Virus genome (UHGV): UHGV-1564381
From: a virus
Strand: one strand, 5' to 3'
Length of the DNA: 12,068 bases
Part shown: positions 2,875 through 10,055 of the stretch, in pieces
How the letters are laid out: each line of letters begins with the position of its first letter
Numbering within the stretch: position 1 is the first letter of the stretch
Translations under genes and position numbers: made by a program
Notes under the pieces: generated by a model
What the model saw: only the letters and a program-made list of their open reading frames with translations
The model's database searches: none
What the model was told of the DNA's origin: nothing

Positions 2875-3153
2875 TTACGGCAACCTGCTCAGTATTTCCT
2901 CTAGATCTTTTTTTGTCATATTGGAGTTCTCATAGATGCGCATGATTTTCTCACGCGTCTTAGCGGAAACCCCAACGGCAGATGTGACTTTGTCAAATTC
3001 AGCCATAGTCATCGTCTCCAGAATGGCATTGATAACTTCAGCCTTAGACATCTTGATTTTTTTCTCTTTGAGTTTTATTTGAAATTTTCCAAGTTTTTCA
3101 TTGGCCTTATCAGACAATGCCACTTGGCAATAAGTTGTTTTCTTTTCGCTCAT
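2875..3153 (-). CDS. Small putative DNA-binding protein (possibly ribbon-helix-helix-like)
   Basis: 92-aa ORF with ATG start 2 nt after the helicase stop. The N-terminal segment (TYCQVAL, then SDKANEKLGKF..., then MSKAEVINAILET) fits a strand-helix-helix pattern by eye only. Lys/Glu-rich. Confidence 0.4.
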   Translation of the reverse strand: MSEKKTTYCQVALSDKANEKLGKFQIKLKEKKIKMSKAEVINAILETMTMAEFDKVTSAVGVSAKTREKIMRIYENSNMTKKDLEEILSRLP

Positions 3154-4715: not shown

Positions 4716-4797
4716 AAACCTCTTTCCTTAGTGCCTTTTGTATGTTATTTGGCTATTATAATAAGTAAGTGATTACTTAGTGGATTGTAGCAATAAA
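4716..4797. promoter_or_regulatory. Divergent intergenic region between helicase and ParB-like operon; candidate bidirectional promoter
   Basis: 82-bp AT-rich spacer between divergent starts. Contains the palindromic octamer ATTATAAT (4755-4762), which reads as a consensus TATAAT -10 on both strands. No good -35 hexamer found at 16-18 bp spacing on either strand. Confidence 0.3.
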
Positions 4798-5478
4798 ATG
4801 GATGTAAAAATCACGATTTTGCAGGTTGATGTTGCCAACCTTCGCCCGAATACCTGGAACACCAATTCGGTTGGTGCGCAGAATTTTGAAAAACTGAAAG
4901 GTTCTATCGAAAAATTGGGCTTTTTTAAGCCAATTTTGGCTCGTGAACTTGAAGATGGATTTTTTGAAATCCTCGGCGGTGAACATCGCTGGCGTGCTGC
5001 TATTGAGCAAGGAATTTCAACGGTTCCGGTGCTTTCTGTGGGCAAAATTAGCGATGTCGTAGCTAAACAGATGTCACTGGTGGACAACGAGCGATACGGT
5101 GAAGACGACCAAATCGCATTGCAACGCTTCATTGAAGAAATTCAGTCAGAACTTGACTATCAACTGTCTGAAATCGCTCCGTATGACGACGAAATCTCGA
5201 TGGTTTTAGCAAAAGAGGCGGCAATCGACCTTGAAGCACTGGAGGCGTTGTCTCGTGGTAGTGATGAGCCTGTCGATACCGACAAACGAGAGAAAACCGA
5301 ACGTGTGGGTGCGGAACATCAGACCATGCGCTTCAAAGTAACTTTCGATGCGTCAGATCGTGTTGCAGAAACCATAAAAAACATCATCAAAGAGCAGGCT
5401 ATTAACACCGGTAATGAAATGGAGAACGCTGGTGAGGCTCTGGTGTGGCTGGTCGACTACTACAAGGAGCGTATGTAA
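4798..5478 (+). CDS. ParB/Srx-fold (ParB N-terminal domain-like) protein, paralog 1
   Basis: N-terminal ITILQVDVANLRPNTWNTN followed by ILGGEHRWRAAIEQGISTVPV matches the ParB/sulfiredoxin GxxRxxA signature. C-terminal half is strongly acidic. The ORF track opens at GTG 4780; ATG 4798 is chosen by analogy with the paralog's N-terminus. Stop TAA overlaps the next start (TAATG). Confidence 0.75.
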   Translation: MDVKITILQVDVANLRPNTWNTNSVGAQNFEKLKGSIEKLGFFKPILARELEDGFFEILGGEHRWRAAIEQGISTVPVLSVGKISDVVAKQMSLVDNERYGEDDQIALQRFIEEIQSELDYQLSEIAPYDDEISMVLAKEAAIDLEALEALSRGSDEPVDTDKREKTERVGAEHQTMRFKVTFDASDRVAETIKNIIKEQAINTGNEMENAGEALVWLVDYYKERM

Positions 5479-6146
5479 TGACCAAAAAGTTTGAAATCGT
5501 ATATCGCGACCCGGCAGATCTTATTCCCTATGAGATGAATGCCAAAAAGCATGATGAACAGCAGATCAGAGATCTGGCCGCAGCCATTAAAAAGCGCGGA
5601 TTTGACCAGCCAATTACGGTCGATAAGAACGACGTAATTATTACTGGCCACGGCCGCCGTGAGGCTGCAATTTTTGCTGGACTTGAGCGCGTACCGGTTA
5701 TTGTTCGCGATGATCTCAGTGATGACGAGGTTCGTGCGAAGCGCCTTGAAGATAACCGACTTGCCAGCATTGATTACGATGCAATTAAGCTACAGAAAGA
5801 GCTTGAGTCGCTTGTTCTGGACGATATCGAGGTTTTCGGCTTTGAAGAGCGTGAGTTGAATGTTCTCGTTGGCAGTATGACAGAAGAAATGGACACCGAC
5901 TCGCTAGTTATCGATCTTGGCGAAGAAACTAAACGACAGAAGGATGAACACACCGAGATCAGTCGTGAAGTTGCAGCGGAAGAAGTACGTGTTGTCGACG
6001 TATTGGGCTTTAAAACGCTCCCTGCTGGCTCTGCCATTGTTGTTGGTGATTTGCTTGCCCATATGGAAGAAATGACGGGAGAAAGCGGGGTAGACGCATT
6101 TGTGGCATATGCGGAGAAGATCTCTTCCGGGGAGATGGCTGCATGA
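5478..6146 (+). CDS. ParB/Srx-fold (ParB N-terminal domain-like) protein, paralog 2
   Basis: ATG at 5478 preceded by AGGAG (5464-5468); the track's GTG 5445 start is rejected. Motif ITGHGRREAAIFAGLERVPV fits the ParB/Srx signature. Same architecture as the upstream gene: ParB-like N-domain plus acidic C-terminal half. ATGA overlap with the downstream ATPase. Confidence 0.75.
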   Translation: MTKKFEIVYRDPADLIPYEMNAKKHDEQQIRDLAAAIKKRGFDQPITVDKNDVIITGHGRREAAIFAGLERVPVIVRDDLSDDEVRAKRLEDNRLASIDYDAIKLQKELESLVLDDIEVFGFEERELNVLVGSMTEEMDTDSLVIDLGEETKRQKDEHTEISREVAAEEVRVVDVLGFKTLPAGSAIVVGDLLAHMEEMTGESGVDAFVAYAEKISSGEMAA

Positions 6147-6808
6147 GCAAATACATCATCAACGTATCGTTTCAGACACGCGTAAATAAAACCACGCGCA
6201 CGTTGGAAATCGCTGAGTCGTTCGGGCTTGGCCTGGACGAAAAAGAGTGGACGCTTTACGACAATCTGGAGCTGGAAGTGAAGCAGGGCGATGTGGTGTA
6301 CATCACCGGCCAATCCGGTTCCGGCAAATCCGTTGTGCTGCGCGAGTTGCAACGACAGATGAAGGATGAAGGGCTGTCTGTAGCCTCCATCGATGATTTT
6401 ACCTTCGATAATGAGGTTAACGTCATCGATCAGTTGGGCAAAACGACCAGTGATGCGCTTGGGTTGTTATCTATGGCTGGTCTGAACGATGCATATCTGT
6501 TTGTTCGCAAGCCTTCTGAAATGTCAGACGGCCAGAAATATCGTCTCAAGATTGCCAAACTGATTGAGTCAGGCGCTAAAGTATGGGCTGCTGACGAGTT
6601 CGGCGCTGTTCTCGACCGTGTAACCGCTCAGGTTGTGGCGTCTAACCTCCAGCGTGCCGCTCGAAAGGTTGGTGCGACGGTAATGGTGGCGACGACTCAC
6701 GAAGACCTGAAGAACGCGCTGCGCCCTGATATGCAGATCACCAAGCACTACAAAGAACGCGTGAAGGTGGAATATCACAATGGTAGTCATGATGAGGTTC
6801 ATTTATGA
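6143..6808 (+). CDS. Stand-alone ABC-type ATPase (nucleotide-binding domain only)
   Basis: 221 aa. Walker A GQSGSGKS, ABC signature-like SDGQKYRLKIAKL, Walker B VWAADEF, D-loop AVLD, H-loop ATTHED, all in canonical order and spacing. GGGGAG RBS upstream. ATGA overlaps at both ends (6143-6146 and 6805-6808). Confidence 0.8.
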   Translation: MSKYIINVSFQTRVNKTTRTLEIAESFGLGLDEKEWTLYDNLELEVKQGDVVYITGQSGSGKSVVLRELQRQMKDEGLSVASIDDFTFDNEVNVIDQLGKTTSDALGLLSMAGLNDAYLFVRKPSEMSDGQKYRLKIAKLIESGAKVWAADEFGAVLDRVTAQVVASNLQRAARKVGATVMVATTHEDLKNALRPDMQITKHYKERVKVEYHNGSHDEVHL

Positions 6809-7695
6809 CGGACATCATCATTAAACGCTACCGCCCTGAAGAGTTTCCGCGTCATCTGGACTTTCTGGAGCGAATGACTGTCACAAAGGGAACTGTAGAG
6901 GACTGGCACGCTCTTAAGTCGCTTCACTACAAAACAGACGGCAAACCTTTCGCGCCAACATACTATCGCTGCGAACTGGATGACCGTCTGGTGGGCGTCG
7001 TGGTTATGGCTTACCCGAAACTTCTGCTGGCACCTCGCCATCGCATGTTTCCTAAGTTGAAACCAACCACCAATACCACCGTGGCTAACCAGTACTGGGG
7101 CCGGTACGTGAATAACAACTTTGCGGTGATCAGCCGCTCAGTTGTGGATACTCAGTACCGTGGCGTAGGCGTCTCTTATCGAATGATTAACCTAGTTAGC
7201 AGGATGCATGACCGGCCAATCATTGAGATCCAGTCATCGATGAGCAAATACAATCCCTTCGCCATGAAAGCAGGGTTTAAGTTCATCCGCCCTGAGCGAC
7301 CGAAGAGCTATGAAAGTGCACTGCGTGTGTTCCAGCGCCATTTCCGCTCCGACCCGGGTGATAACGAGGCGATCGTCAAAGAGTTGTTCGCTATGAGCGA
7401 GTCTCGTCGTCGCCGTGCGCTGCGCGATTTGGTGGCGGACTACCATAAGAACAGTTCCCTGGCAAAAGCTGGGCGGAATCGTGGCACGACGATTCAGGAC
7501 ATTGCCGACAGTCTGGTGGACGAGGCCAGCATTGTGAAGCTGCTCAAGGACATTCACAACCTGAGCTTTACGTCTCCGTTGTATGGTGTGTACCGAAACC
7601 CTGACTTTGGCCGTCGACTGCCTGACACGCTGCCACTGCTGGCATTCGACAAACAACCTTTGGATAAACCGTTAGAAATTGCTTTACCGGCATAA
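6805..7695 (+). CDS. GNAT-like acyltransferase-fold protein with a roughly 110-aa C-terminal extension
   Basis: 296 aa. VVDTQYRGVGVSYRMINLV resembles GNAT motif A (R-x-x-G-x-G/A acyl-CoA pyrophosphate loop); NPFAMKAGFKF resembles motif B. The C-terminal third is Arg-rich and matches nothing I recognise. Fold assignment is by eye. Confidence 0.55.
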   Translation: MTDIIIKRYRPEEFPRHLDFLERMTVTKGTVEDWHALKSLHYKTDGKPFAPTYYRCELDDRLVGVVVMAYPKLLLAPRHRMFPKLKPTTNTTVANQYWGRYVNNNFAVISRSVVDTQYRGVGVSYRMINLVSRMHDRPIIEIQSSMSKYNPFAMKAGFKFIRPERPKSYESALRVFQRHFRSDPGDNEAIVKELFAMSESRRRRALRDLVADYHKNSSLAKAGRNRGTTIQDIADSLVDEASIVKLLKDIHNLSFTSPLYGVYRNPDFGRRLPDTLPLLAFDKQPLDKPLEIALPA

Positions 7696-7704
7696 GGATT
7701 TGCC

Positions 7705-7971
7705 ATGACGTTAACCGATAAACAAAAGGACATCATCAAAACGCTCAATCTCGGTTATGAGCGAGGTCATCTACTTGACCTGGACGAATTGCTTGAAGTT
7801 TTGCCGTACAAGACAACCAAGCAAAGTATCCAGTTCTCAATTCGCGCTCTGATAAAAAAGGGGCTGGTGGAGAAAGGGCATACGCGCCAACGCAGTGACA
7901 ATCGCTATCACCGCCGGACTCTTGGGTTAACCACTTTAGGTCGAGCCAAAGCGAAGTTACTGGTGATGTAA
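7705..7971 (+). CDS. Small putative winged-helix DNA-binding protein
   Basis: 88 aa. ATG at 7705 with AAGGA 6 nt upstream, 9 nt after the GNAT stop. The segment DELLEVLPYKTTKQSIQFSIRALIKKGLVEKG has the pattern of a wHTH recognition helix and wing; basic C-terminus. Confidence 0.45.
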   Translation: MTLTDKQKDIIKTLNLGYERGHLLDLDELLEVLPYKTTKQSIQFSIRALIKKGLVEKGHTRQRSDNRYHRRTLGLTTLGRAKAKLLVM

Positions 7972-8007
7972 TCGGTCTGGGAGCTTATTTAAAGACCTGC
8001 ATCTGTA

Positions 8008-8040: not shown

Positions 8041-8127
8041 CGGAAGCAGGCTTCGTAAGACATGCCAGACCTAATTAAACACCCCAGAAAACAAGTTGGT
8101 TAGCAGATGCAGTAAACAAGTTGTTTT

Positions 8128-8147
8128 AGAGCGCATGGACGCGCTCT
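8128..8147 (+). promoter_or_regulatory. GC-rich hairpin flanked by a direct repeat, just upstream of the small terminase start
   Basis: AGAGCGC (8128-8134) and GCGCTCT (8141-8147) around a 6-nt loop, followed by GTGTGTTTTAGAGGG. GTTTTAGAG occurs at 8123-8131 and again at 8152-8160. The GAGGG at 8158-8162 is the likely RBS for the ATG at 8167. Confidence 0.3.
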
Positions 8148-8166
8148 GTGTGTTTTAGAGGGATCT

Positions 8167-8799
8167 ATGACGGTCGAAAAAGACGAGGTAAAAACTCGCC
8201 TGACACCAGCGGAGTGGGCCGAAGCTGAAGCCAAATGGACGTCAGGCGAATATACACTCTCAAAGCTGGAGGAAGAGTACGGCATTCGTCGTGAAACACT
8301 CTCCAGACATTTCAAAAAGCGAGGATTAGAGAAAGGCGCGGACTCTGTTGGGAAGATGGTTCGTGAGTCTCTTAAATCTGACGCAGAGCTTCGCGCTAAA
8401 GCCCGTGCGGAAAAGATAGAAGAACGTCGTACACGTTATGACGGCTGGGCGTATGCGTTGGGGCAGATGGTGATGGTCGAAGTCACTACGGCCAAACGTG
8501 AGGGTAAGCCTTTAGGGGCGATTGAGGATTCTCTCAAGAGCTTACAGAGAGCCAGTAATACCCTTGCAAAATGCTTTGAAGTTTCGTCCAAAGCATTGGG
8601 CATGGATCATGCGGAAAATGACGAGGAAGAAATTCCGAACCTGGTATTTGGTGAGCTTACGCCTTCCCAGGTGGCGAAATTACGTCAGGAAGACGACGAG
8701 CCTGAAATCATCGATGACGAATTGCTTGAGACGTTGGAAGAAGAAGCTCTAAGCGAATTTGATGCGACAGATGATGGAATTGAAGGGGAGGACGAATAA
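8167..8799 (+). CDS. Putative terminase small subunit
   Basis: 210 aa, sitting directly upstream of the large terminase and overlapping it by 1 nt (TAATG). N-terminal region (LSKLEEEYGIRRETLSRHFKKRG) looks like an HTH. Highly acidic C-terminal tail (EDDEPEIIDDELLETLEEEALSEFDATDDGIEGEDE). Assignment is by position and architecture. Confidence 0.5.
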   Translation: MTVEKDEVKTRLTPAEWAEAEAKWTSGEYTLSKLEEEYGIRRETLSRHFKKRGLEKGADSVGKMVRESLKSDAELRAKARAEKIEERRTRYDGWAYALGQMVMVEVTTAKREGKPLGAIEDSLKSLQRASNTLAKCFEVSSKALGMDHAENDEEEIPNLVFGELTPSQVAKLRQEDDEPEIIDDELLETLEEEALSEFDATDDGIEGEDE

Positions 8800-10055
8800 T
8801 GGCAATCCCGTCCTCGCTCAGTCTTGTGCAACTGCATTCTGGACAGATGAAAGTCTTCCAGTCTCCGCATCGATTTAAAGTTGTTTGTGCTGGTCGACGC
8901 TGGGGAAAATCCCGGTTGTCGATCTCCACTATTATTCGTGCGGCGGCAAAGGAAAAAAAGCAAAGAGTCTGGTATGTCGCTCCTACTTACCAGATGGCTC
9001 GCCAGATTTTGTGGGACGATCTACAGGAAGTTCTGCCTCGTAAGTGGGTTAGGAAAAAGAACGACACCACGATGACAATCGTGTTGAAGAACGGTTCGGA
9101 GATCGCCCTCAAAGGTGCTGATAAGCCTGACACTCTGCGCGGCGTAGCGTTGCATTTTGTAGTGCTTGATGAATTTCAGGATATGAAGGCTGACACCTGG
9201 TACAAGGTGTTACGACCTACTCTTTCATCGACACGCGGCGGTGCACTGATCATTGGTACGCCAAAAGGCTTCTCGGAATTTCACAAACTGTGGACTATAG
9301 GCCAGAACGTAGAGCTGCAAAGAAAGGGACAGTGGAAGAGCTGGCAGTTTGTAACTGCCGATTCTCCGTTTGTACCTACGGCGGAAATTGAAGCTGCTAA
9401 GAACGATATGGACCCGAAATCGTTCGCTCAGGAGTACCTGGCGAGCTTTGAGAACATGTCCGGGCGCGTTTACTACCCGTTCGATCGTAACGTGCATGTA
9501 AAACCGCTTCAGTTCAACCCTCGGTTGCCTATATGGGTAGGGCAGGACTTCAACATTGACCCGATGTCTTCAGTAATTTTGCAACCTCAGCCAAATGGTG
9601 AGCTATGGGCAATTGATGAATTGGTGCTCTTTTCCTCTAACACGGCAGAGGTTTGTGATGAGCTTGAGAGACGCTTCTGGCGCTGGAAATCACAGATAAC
9701 GGTATTTCCAGATCCGGCAGGTGCTTATCGCCAACATGCTCGCGGGGAGTCTGACGTCGACATATTCAAAGAGAAGGGATTCTTACGTGTCGATTATTCG
9801 AAAAAGCACCCGCCAATTGCGGATCGTGTTAATGCTGTTAACCGAATGCTGATGACCGCATCTGGAGATATCCGGCTGTATATCGATCCGAAGTGCAAGC
9901 ATTTGATTGATTCACTGGAAAAAGTCATCTACAAGCCTGGAACACGAGATATGGATAAGACAGGTGGCATTGAGCATAGTGCAGACGCATTGGGCTATCC
10001 AGTACATCGTAGGTATCCAGTCAAAAACCGTGTTATTCTTGGTGGTTCTCGATAG
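8799..10055 (+). CDS. Terminase large subunit (ATPase plus nuclease)
   Basis: 418 aa. Terminase-type Walker A VVCAGRRWGKSRLS, Walker B HFVVLDEFQD, and a C-terminal half with conserved acidic residues (QDFNIDPMSS, FPDPAG) consistent with an RNase H-like nuclease domain. GGGGAGG RBS 7 nt upstream. Confidence 0.85.
   Translation: MAIPSSLSLVQLHSGQMKVFQSPHRFKVVCAGRRWGKSRLSISTIIRAAAKEKKQRVWYVAPTYQMARQILWDDLQEVLPRKWVRKKNDTTMTIVLKNGSEIALKGADKPDTLRGVALHFVVLDEFQDMKADTWYKVLRPTLSSTRGGALIIGTPKGFSEFHKLWTIGQNVELQRKGQWKSWQFVTADSPFVPTAEIEAAKNDMDPKSFAQEYLASFENMSGRVYYPFDRNVHVKPLQFNPRLPIWVGQDFNIDPMSSVILQPQPNGELWAIDELVLFSSNTAEVCDELERRFWRWKSQITVFPDPAGAYRQHARGESDVDIFKEKGFLRVDYSKKHPPIADRVNAVNRMLMTASGDIRLYIDPKCKHLIDSLEKVIYKPGTRDMDKTGGIEHSADALGYPVHRRYPVKNRVILGGSR

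Follow-up and report, generated by a model that had tools for sequence, protein, structure and literature searches.

A GNAT-fold protein of SSU5-like phage-plasmids may be the catalytic subunit of a split ABC ATPase–acyltransferase acting on viral DNA

What does the gene at positions 6805-7695 of UHGV-1564381 encode, and on which substrate would its product act? The first-pass annotation read it as a GNAT-like enzyme with an Arg-rich extension. The window, by which we mean the whole stretch of 12,068 nucleotides, is 98.9% identical in DNA sequence to the SSU5-like phage-plasmid Escherichia phage Cyrano. The open reading frame runs on the plus strand from an ATG to a stop codon and specifies 296 aa. 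Its product is 100% identical to the Cyrano counterpart, matches phrog_886 over the full length (E 1e-164) and has 341 homologues at E<=1e-3, all of ~290-310 aa; the frame called at first pass is thus a real gene. Its surroundings in the window comprise the following features.

4798-5478, plus strand: ParB/Srx N-terminal-domain protein 1, first gene of the operon (Pfam ParB_N, E 3e-13; phrog_723; box II-like GEHRWRA; start taken as annotated in Cyrano)
5478-6146, plus strand: ParB/Srx N-terminal-domain protein 2 (Pfam ParB_N, E 1.5e-8; phrog_930, E 1e-112; GHGRREA)
6143-6808, plus strand: soluble ABC-type ATPase (Pfam ABC_tran, E 6e-13; Walker A GQSGSGKS; signature MSDGQ; Walker B VWAADE; H-loop TTHE)
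6805-7695, plus strand: GNAT-fold subunit of 296 aa, the gene under study; its ATG overlaps the ABC stop codon (ATGA)
7705-7971, plus strand: 88-aa winged-helix-like protein (phrog_900, E 2e-45; weak LexA, Lrs14 and Sta1 HTH matches)
8127-8148, plus strand: terminator-like hairpin with T-run, between the operon and the TerS gene
8167-8799, plus strand: TerS-like packaging gene flanking the module
8799-10055, plus strand: TerL packaging gene flanking the module (matches for the TerS-like/TerL pair: phrog_867; Pfam Terminase_6N and Terminase_6C)

The GNAT gene is translationally coupled to the ABC ATPase gene in a ParB–ParB–ABC–GNAT–winged-HTH operon that lies beside the terminase genes. The two ParB genes are themselves packed closely, with the start of the second and the stop of the first overlapping by 1 nt, and the ATPase frame whose stop overlaps the GNAT start codon has all its motifs intact. 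The earlier reading had overlooked both this partner ATPase at the start codon and the fused relatives described below. Short ORFs of 87-113 aa lie directly downstream of the GNAT gene in three further loci as well (L003, L004 and L007). A scan for promoters and terminators, the hairpin ahead of the TerS gene included, found sites no more numerous than in shuffled sequence, and we therefore make no regulatory claim.

RefSeq and PHROGs label the protein as an ABC transporter ATP-binding subunit. This label appears in the annotations of phrog_886, SSU5_129 and nickie gp155, and the Cyrano entry reads 'MK0520, ABC-type ATPase fused to a predicted acetyltransferase domain'. The protein itself contains no Walker A motif, gives no ABC_tran match and has the GNAT fold, and no permease gene lies nearby; the likelihood that the label is right is close to nil, and we regard it as refuted and as wrong for this ORF. 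It derives from fused proteins, the ABC half of which corresponds to the upstream ORF at 6143-6808. The ABC ORFs of loci L003, L004 and L007 likewise match the N-terminal half of the fused-family profile, with E-values of 1e-88 to 1e-92.

Within the GNAT-fold protein, the following elements were distinguished.

6805-7299, plus strand: GNAT core, residues 1-165 (net charge +12; inserted helical pair at ~residues 76-105)
6925-6933, plus strand: H41-Y42-K43 motif (invariant columns; FHY invariant in the fused family; opposite Mom H58-Y59 in a low-confidence alignment)
7159-7176, plus strand: motif A, the CoA pyrophosphate-binding loop by conservation and motif location, R119-G-V-G122-V-S124
7252-7284, plus strand: motif B, NPFAMKAGFKF, residues 150-160 (the invariant E141 and M146 lie ahead of it on strand beta-5)
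7300-7569, plus strand: helical module of ~six helices, residues 166-255 (in full-length and isolated AF2 models; family-specific; homologous to the fused family)
7405-7416, plus strand: RRRR run, residues 201-204, inside the helical module and clade-specific
7576-7605, plus strand: conserved strand P258-LYGVYRNPD-267 (matching the Y-x-x-W-x-NP C-terminus of fused proteins)
7606-7674, plus strand: C-terminal peptide G-R-x-LP-x-x-LPL-x-AFD-x-Q-x-x-x-x-PL, residues 268-290, found in the split phage family only

At the level of sequence, the evidence for a GNAT domain is weak. No Pfam GNAT cut-off was reached, the sole match being Acetyltransf_10 at 14.4 bits against a cut-off of 23.6 bits (E 0.037), and PDB sequence searches gave no useful match either with the single protein or with the family profile, which found no GNAT (AlkD at E ~1, a myosin chimera at E 0.33). 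The predicted structure bears out the GNAT-like assignment: it has the mixed alpha/beta GNAT fold, in the order beta1-alpha1/2-beta2-4-alpha3-beta5-alpha4-beta6/7, and Mom is its top structural match among viral proteins. Both motifs that the first-pass annotation had picked out are present. RGVGVS, at residues 119-124, conforms to the acyl-CoA loop consensus Q/R-x-x-G-x-G/A between beta-4 and alpha-3, has R119 and G122 invariant across 63 homologues, and corresponds to RGIGLG in the fused ABC–GNAT relatives; NPFAMKAGFKF occupies residues 150-160.

Conservation of this kind bears on whether the domain works as an enzyme at all. A catalytically inert GNAT could serve as a structural or regulatory adaptor of a ParB–ABC DNA clamp, for example as an acyl-CoA-sensing or dimerization module that helps the terminase or replisome to choose viral DNA. 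The failure to reach a Pfam GNAT threshold would fit such a role, as would the description of ParB clamps as non-catalytic loaders or scaffolds. Against it, motif A with R119 and G122 is retained, and H41, Y42, R78, R111, E141 and N265 are invariant or nearly so in split and fused families at archaeal-bacterial distance; such a polar set is typical of an active site rather than of a scaffold, and we consider an inert domain improbable.

The C-terminal region proved different from what had been supposed. Its last ~110 residues had been described as a basic, Arg-rich extension, yet the query carries a net charge of only +3 over residues 166-255 and of 0 over residues 256-296, and most split homologues are neutral or acidic here: the means over 63 homologues are +0.9 and -1.8, respectively, and the pI from residue 166 to the end is 5.2-7.3 in seven sampled homologues. 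The RRRR run (within SESRRRR, residues 198-204) occurs in the enterobacterial clade only. Nor is the region an appended Arg-rich nucleic-acid-binding tail; the conserved positive charge sits on the GNAT core, at ~+10 to +12 across the superfamily (averages of +9.8 in the split and +12.4 in the fused family). It had also been said to match nothing recognized; in fact, the fused ABC–GNAT proteins end in a homologous region (HHalign, E 1e-39). The C-terminal ~130 residues belong to the enzyme proper: a helical module of ancestral origin, present throughout the family, and after it a conserved strand. A PDB fold search with the helical module (residues 166-255) gave no match. The YGxYxNPD segment forms a strand in the full-length AF2 model but not in the isolated C-terminal model, and residues 258-267 probably supply the last beta-strand of the GNAT sheet. 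Invariant C-terminal residues are Y260, G261, N265, P266 and Q284. Columns 269-290 of the terminal peptide are nearly invariant and fall outside the stretch that aligns with the fused family; the peptide is a candidate docking segment that may engage the ABC partner.

The fused relatives, of the COG2401 type, supply the wider context. Profile searches retrieved many proteins of 450-500 aa that combine ABC_tran and GNAT domains, and HHalign of the target family against this fused family gave a probability of 100% and an E-value of 1.1e-39 over residues ~2-270. By profile comparison, the GNAT domain including its C-terminal module is thus homologous to COG2401-type fused proteins of archaea and viruses. 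The split module keeps its synteny at 41-45% identity in phages of Gamma- and Alphaproteobacteria. Relatives occur in SSU5-like phage-plasmids of Enterobacteriaceae, which are found in clinical isolates. Others come from large lytic siphophages that infect Pseudomonas, Rhizobium, Stenotrophomonas or Xanthomonas, from actinophages and phages of Leptospira, and from archaeal proviruses (Bathyarchaeia, Nitrososphaeria, Asgard), of which hundreds carry one. Several relatives are fused to further domains, and the fusion partners found are all DNA-related: ParB with a Zn-ribbon (P0195, P0217, P0224, P0226), a DnaA-like P-loop with a PD-ExK-like segment, the latter read by eye (P0203), TFIIB (P0154), and family B DNA polymerase (PolB), the last in at least 24 contigs and inside a replication module (P0204). 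The contigs with P0159, P0173 and P0224 are too short to inform.

TerL is present in 42 of 80 loci from archaeal proviruses, and in 22 of those 42 the ABC–GNAT gene follows the end of TerL at a distance of <200 bp in the same orientation, with 4-bp start/stop overlaps between the two in individual loci such as L072 and L043. The unrelated phages AnClar of Gordonia and LE4 of Leptospira encode ParB and ABC–GNAT just upstream of terminase. Adjacency to TerL, DNA polymerase and ParB fits two kinds of substrate equally, however, namely DNA or a DNA-bound, packaging or replication protein. The same ABC-ATPase–GNAT machine could acetylate TerS, TerL, portal, polymerase or a DNA-bound nucleoid or chromatin protein, for instance to regulate packaging or to clear DNA ahead of the motor. 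That TerL adjoins ABC–GNAT directly in two gene orders, and overlaps it by 4 bp in some archaeal loci where it lies upstream, speaks for this possibility, as does the fact that the module heads the packaging genes of SSU5-like phages and of the Gordonia and Leptospira phages. Moreover, some phage GNATs are known to modify host proteins, Rac of phiKMV-like phages being one (PMC7824862). We nevertheless judge a protein substrate unlikely, although it is the most serious of the competing accounts: a core of +10 to +12 fits a polyanion better than it fits basic DNA-binding proteins, the PolB, ParB and DnaA-like fusions point to DNA as their common denominator, and no candidate substrate protein is conserved in all contexts: the retrieved stretch lacks TerL in 38 of the 80 archaeal loci (many of them short contigs), and so do the PolB-fusion loci.

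The stage of infection at which the operon acts can be approached through Cyrano. The operon genes there, CYRAN_119-123, are missing from the published inventory of what Cyrano expresses as a lysogen, which fits a role in the lytic cycle. Strictly lytic relatives (Nickievirus, RHEph10-like) have the GNAT gene in their conserved core. We considered and rejected a role of the ParB pair in plasmid partition, because the operon is not listed as lysogen-expressed and lytic relatives keep the module. Counting further against it, CYRAN_99, annotated as 'Septum site-determining protein', is expressed separately in the lysogen and may be a MinD/ParA-type partition ATPase.

The same observations weigh against a host-directed GNAT toxin or takeover factor, be it an aminoacyl-tRNA acetyltransferase of the TacT/AtaT/KacT type or an acetyltransferase of host enzymes. 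Such an assignment could appeal to the GNAT fold with its basic surface, to the small HTH-like gene that adjoins, and to the toxin-antitoxin modules that phage-plasmids carry. A separate KacT-type pair, CYRAN_26/27, is however expressed in the Cyrano lysogen, whereas CYRAN_119-123 are not in the list, and the gene belongs to the conserved core of phages that are strictly lytic. GNAT toxins are single domains of ~160-180 aa with an adjacent antitoxin and carrier-state expression; the present protein measures 296 aa, comes coupled to an ABC ATPase, and contains a helical module with a homologue in the fused proteins. We know of no GNAT toxin with coupling or fusion to an ABC ATPase or ParB, or with such a helical module. 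Neither PADLOC nor NCBIfam returned a match for the protein. A toxin is accordingly very improbable in our estimation.

We put at about an even chance that the protein forms the catalytic, GNAT-fold half of a split ABC-ATPase–GNAT enzyme, and that this enzyme and the two ParB/Srx proteins together act on the DNA of the virus in its lytic cycle. The best reading, by analogy with Mom, is an ATP-gated, acyl-CoA-dependent transferase on DNA. Phage DNA would be bound or clamped by the ParB-like proteins, and ATP-driven dimerization of the ABC ATPase would position the GNAT subunit, which would hold acyl-CoA in its R-x-x-G-x-G/A/S loop and transfer the acyl group to an exocyclic amine on a DNA base. 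H41, Y42, R111 and E141 are candidates for the active site. The C-terminal 130 residues would contribute the helical module, the presumed last GNAT strand and the split-form peptide as a possible ABC dock. The reaction would take place after replication and before or during genome packaging, and the acylation may mark or protect the genome, as Mom does. This reading draws on the retained motif A, the homology to fused proteins, the ABC coupling, the DNA-related fusions, the TerL and ParB neighbourhoods and the basic GNAT core, and additionally on the low-confidence residue alignment with Mom, the ParB partners of modifying enzymes and the absence from the lysogen-expressed list.

The nucleic-acid-directed acyl transfer proposed at first pass has emerged as the best-supported reading. 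Besides the structural match to Mom, it agrees with a computational prediction from the Aravind group that an ABC-ATPase–GNAT system acylates a DNA nucleobase, as given in PMC7824862 (section 3.4.7). The protein is not new as a family, and its DNA-acylation role has already been predicted in print. Iyer et al. (2013, NAR 41:7635) is reportedly the original source of that prediction. Literature searches for COG2401, MK0520 and 'ABC-GNAT' found nothing specific. We likewise found no biochemical or mass-spectrometric report of acylated bases in SSU5-like phages, Nickievirus or archaeal viruses, and none of restriction-resistant or modified SSU5-type DNA. Counting against DNA acylation, PMC13219725 reports that exocyclic amines carry N-acyl groups in an unstable manner. 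More tentatively, ParB–ABC–GNAT may constitute an ancient toolkit of archaeal and bacterial tailed viruses that installs an acyl-CoA-derived, so far unobserved N-acyl base mark, in an ATP-gated and ParB-loaded manner at the transition from replication to packaging.

If DNA acylation is correct, Mom would be joined by a second GNAT-based DNA modification, and acyl-CoA, an ABC ATPase and ParB proteins would serve such a modification for the first time. An N-acyl mark would represent a new chemical class of viral DNA hypermodification, for which Cyrano or SSU5 would offer a model amenable to genetics in E. coli, and it would bear on restriction evasion, on sequencing-based detection of modified DNA and on the engineering of the phages concerned. 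Even if the substrate is a protein, the recurrent coupling to terminase, polymerase and ParB would point to an unrecognized step in viral genome handling.

Among known systems, the COG2401-type proteins are closest. They share with the target family the GNAT core, the helical module and the terminal Y-x-x-W/Y-x-NP strand, the invariant HY[K/R], R-x-x-G and E...M...NPF residues, an ABC ATPase partner with an LSDGQKYR-type signature, and a viral setting. In the present operon, by contrast, ABC and GNAT are encoded by two genes with translational coupling, the operon also contains two ParB genes that stand alone and a winged-HTH gene, and the split form carries the extra conserved C-terminal peptide (residues 268-290).

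Mom of phage Mu (PF25680) is a GNAT-fold, glycyl-tRNA-dependent DNA adenine aminoacyltransferase in which H58, Y59, R111 and S124 are essential by mutagenesis (PMC13219725). Like Mom, the present protein would be a viral GNAT that acts on DNA late in infection. The two have no significant sequence relationship: PF25680 does not match the target at E<=0.1, and HHalign against the Mom alignment gave E 0.09 and a probability of 0.6% for the target family and E 0.0039 and a probability of 8.5% for the fused family. In this low-confidence alignment of the fused family, H41, Y42 and the beta-4 Arg R111 fall opposite Mom H58, Y59 and R111, whereas the position opposite S124 is S, A or G and the Ser is not conserved. 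Mom lacks the helical module and uses a charged tRNA as donor, and its CoA loop appears degenerate (PRNSES, from the same low-confidence alignment and sequence reading), whereas the target retains a canonical R-x-x-G-x-G/A/S loop. To our knowledge, no ABC ATPase or ParB partner has been reported for Mom.

TmcA/NAT10 combines an ATPase/helicase with a GNAT and carries out ATP-dependent N4-acetylation of cytidine in RNA. It is thereby an established example of a GNAT that uses acetyl-CoA to acylate an exocyclic amine of a base and that depends on a coupled P-loop ATPase, although its ATPase domain is of the helicase rather than the ABC type and its substrate is RNA; no homology to the target beyond the GNAT fold was detected. 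The two ParB genes, finally, recall the phage 5mYOX thymine dioxygenases, which have a ParB activator (PMC13229309), and the DpdA/DpdB system, in which ParB-like DpdB is the partner of the DNA-modifying enzyme. In both, a ParB/Srx-fold protein is encoded beside a post-replicative phage DNA-modifying enzyme, as would be the case here, and is needed by that enzyme, whereas the ParB role in the present operon is putative; their catalytic folds are those of a dioxygenase or TGT rather than a GNAT, and they operate without an ABC ATPase.

The open reading frame at 6805-7695 (+), encoding a 296-residue GNAT-fold protein, lies in a region (4780-8000) that is 98.9% identical to Escherichia phage Cyrano, an SSU5-like phage-plasmid of E. 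coli LF82; Salmonella phage SSU5 is ~85% identical to the window. Five operon genes are tightly packed on the plus strand; downstream of them come TerS-like, TerL and portal genes, and upstream a divergently transcribed UvsW-type helicase gene:

4798-5478, +, ParB-N protein 1
5478-6146, +, ParB-N protein 2
6143-6808, +, ABC-type ATPase
6805-7695, +, target ORF (GNAT fold)
7705-7971, +, winged-helix-like protein, 88 aa

The stop codon of the ABC gene overlaps the target ATG (ATGA, 6805-6808), and the ParB1/ParB2 and ParB2/ABC pairs overlap likewise. For ParB2, mechanical ORF calling placed the start at GTG 5445 and the Cyrano annotation at ATG 5478; the latter shares one base with the ParB1 stop, in keeping with the coupled-operon pattern. 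A box II-like arginine motif is retained in both ParB-like proteins (4798-6146; GEHRWRA and GHGRREA), which makes NTP binding plausible; Pfam detected no HTH DNA-binding domain in either. The 195-bp gap between the winged-helix and TerS genes holds a GC-rich hairpin with a T-run after it (8127-8148), which may terminate operon transcription or belong to a packaging or regulatory site. The operon appears lytic, and the absence of CYRAN_119-123 from the published Cyrano lysogen expression table, in which the KacT toxin pair and CYRAN_117 are present, fits its expression in the lytic cycle. For CYRAN_117, a 92-aa gene upstream of the helicase (2875-3153, −), expression in the LF82 lysogen is reported at 12-fold over background (PMC9928086). 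We regard a toxin directed at the host as very improbable, to the point of being essentially excluded.

The target matches phrog_886 over its full length (E 1e-164), and 341 homologues of it, each 290-310 aa long, pass E<=1e-3; together, these results mark the gene as real. An exhaustive profile search returned 964 homologues at the same threshold. The only GNAT match in Pfam was below threshold (Acetyltransf_10, 14.4 versus 23.6 bits), and searches of NCBIfam, PADLOC and PDB sequences gave no meaningful match. The first-pass annotation had placed the ORF correctly, along with its motifs RGVGVS (residues 119-124) and NPFAMKAGFKF (150-160) and the run SESRRRR (198-204). The entries in RefSeq, PHROG (phrog_886), SSU5 (SSU5_129) and nickie (gp155) name an 'ABC transporter ATP-binding subunit', a label that we reject for a GNAT-fold protein in which a motif search found no Walker A motif. 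The missing Walker A indicates that the RefSeq/PHROG label was mis-transferred from fused ABC–GNAT relatives, and the probability that the target is a transporter subunit is close to nil, so that this role is essentially excluded.

The first-pass annotation had also read the C-terminal region as an Arg-rich tail that could bind nucleic acid; the region proved to be conserved and ancestral rather than an appended basic tail. Comparison of the split-family profile with that of fused 450-500 aa ABC-ATPase–GNAT proteins gave a probability of 100% (E 1e-39), with an alignment that spans residues ~2-270 and so takes in the helices as well as the YGVYRNPD strand, whose counterpart is the Y-L-I/Y-W-x-NP with which the fused proteins end. 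Judged from sequence comparison, the C-terminal region is thus ancestral and common to both families. Y213, S217, G223, Y260, G261, N265, P266 and Q284 are invariant in the family alignment, and an LP..LPL.AFD.Q peptide is nearly so. In isolation, residues 163-296 are modelled with confidence as a helical bundle (pLDDT 87.8). Residues 259-264 are a beta-strand in the full-length model, but no strand is predicted when the C-terminus is modelled alone; the models suggest that these residues form the last strand of the GNAT sheet, with the helices inserted before it. Leptospira, Nonlabens and Gordonia phages have shorter ABC–GNAT proteins, which apparently lack the helical module. The net charge of residues 166-255 is +3 in the target versus a family average of +0.9, the tail averages −1.8 across the family, the pI from residue 166 to the end is 5.2-7.3 in seven sampled homologues, and the RRRR run is found only in the enterobacterial clade. 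The positive charge that is conserved lies in the GNAT core, which averages +9.8 in split and +12.4 in fused proteins (pI about 10). A non-catalytic adaptor role is quite improbable, as motif A and several polar residues are deeply conserved.

The five-gene order adjoining TerS and TerL is kept at 41-45% protein identity in an Ectothiorhodospira contig, a metagenomic chromosome, Pseudomonas phage nickie, and Rhizobium RHEph10-like, Stenotrophomonas and Xanthomonas phages; it is thus a core module shared by the lytic and the temperate members of this siphovirus lineage. The ABC/GNAT pair is sometimes split by inserted morons in relatives: in loci L002 (4994-5248, SSU5_128) and L003 (6961-7999), one to three extra small genes, including those for Phage_gp49_66 and RyR-domain proteins, lie between the two, in contrast to the 4-nt overlap in the window. 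In Xanthomonas phage JGB6 (L008, 2329-12551), the helicase, ParB, ABC, GNAT, terminase and capsid genes are each broken into several ORFs, a pattern suggestive of frameshift errors in the genome as deposited.

Distant relatives have varied architectures: ABC+GNAT; ParB/Srx, Zn-ribbon, ABC and GNAT; a DnaA-like P-loop, a PD-ExK-like segment (read by eye), ABC and GNAT; family B DNA polymerase (PolB), ABC and GNAT; and ABC, GNAT and TFIIB. Among the profile-search matches P0166 and P0154, one homologue carries a LAGLIDADG intein in its ABC domain and another a C-terminal TFIIB repeat, which indicates archaeal origin of the latter. The PolB fusion is genuine; this 1260-aa protein (P0204; L096/L097, 8001-11783) was seen on at least 24 contigs, where the surrounding viral replication module also encodes Prim-Pol, RecA, a 5'-3' exonuclease and an SbcC-like ATPase. 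Scanning one genome per species yielded 380 fused-protein loci, nearly all in archaeal MAGs (Bathyarchaeia, Nitrososphaeria, Aigarchaeota, Asgard, Methanocella), and neighbouring ORFs were clustered for the best 80 of these. The clustered archaeal loci lie within tailed proviruses, and 42 of the best 80 contain TerL (Terminase_6N, Terminase_6C); TerL ends <200 bp upstream of ABC–GNAT on the same strand in 22 of the 42, with a 4-bp overlap in individual loci (for example, L072 and L043). Portal, tail-tube and gp10-like genes also occur, as do the orders ABC–GNAT→TerL and ABC–GNAT→portal. Bathyarchaeia-type proviruses among the 80 archaeal loci (L009-L088) repeatedly encode, just ahead of ABC–GNAT or TerL, small proteins of two clusters without Pfam matches: c2 (~137 aa, 26/80 loci) and c4 (~83 aa, 16/80; from its sequence, likely a membrane protein). 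Terminase-linked ABC–GNAT is seen again in the unrelated bacterial phages AnClar of Gordonia (gene order ParB, HNH, ABC–GNAT, methyltransferase, TerL) and LE4 of Leptospira (gene order ParB-like, ABC–GNAT, three small genes, TerL).

DNA is the common denominator of the ParB, PolB, DnaA-like, TFIIB and terminase contexts. ABC-type ATPases dimerise on ATP. Given these DNA-linked contexts, the very basic GNAT core, the ATP-dimerising ATPase and the lytic-looking operon, we favour a reaction in which a base in viral DNA would be acylated between replication and packaging, in an acyl-CoA-dependent step that is gated by ATP and assisted by ParB, and give this reading an even chance of being correct. 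In the main rival reading, the acylated substrate would be a protein that is bound to DNA or takes part in packaging or replication. Terminase adjacency would suit this rival equally well; it agrees less well with the basic surface and with the polymerase fusion, and we consider it rather unlikely. Catalogues already contain the family (COG2401 label, phrog_886), and a prediction of its likely role is in print (PMC7824862); literature searches found no experimental work on the family. The target is thus a split member of a kind that is known but experimentally uncharacterised. As far as the literature found extends, this analysis apparently adds how the C-terminal region is built, the form of the operon with split ABC and GNAT genes and two ParB genes, the repeated terminase linkage in archaeal and bacterial viruses, and the residue-level parallels with Mom. 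The ABC–GNAT system is widespread, and an E. coli phage-plasmid makes it accessible.

Among known systems, one subclass of phage thymine dioxygenases requires ParB-fold proteins as activators (PMC13229309). DpdB of the Dpd system is a ParB-like ATPase. Mu Mom is a GNAT-fold, glycyl-tRNA-dependent DNA adenine aminoacyltransferase, in which R111, S124 and R151 are essential for activity, which drops drastically in the H58A and Y59A variants (PMC13219725). The target does not match Pfam PF25680 (Mom), and profile-profile comparison with Mom was significant neither for the split family (E 0.09, 30-sequence Mom alignment) nor for the fused family (E 0.0039, probability 8.5%); we therefore do not assign the target to the Mom family. 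In the weak fused-versus-Mom alignment, the invariant FHY faces Mom H58-Y59, the invariant beta-4 Arg (target R111) faces Mom R111, and target motif A faces the PRNSES124 loop, so that the alignment may be structurally sensible despite its non-significance. In a Foldseek search of the target model against predicted viral structures, a Mom protein ranked first (E 8.4e-5) and the Leptospira ABC–GNAT fourth, with many GNATs scoring alike. That the target would work like Mom is a supported analogy; the two differ in that the canonical CoA loop is kept only in the target family, which makes acyl-CoA the likelier donor.
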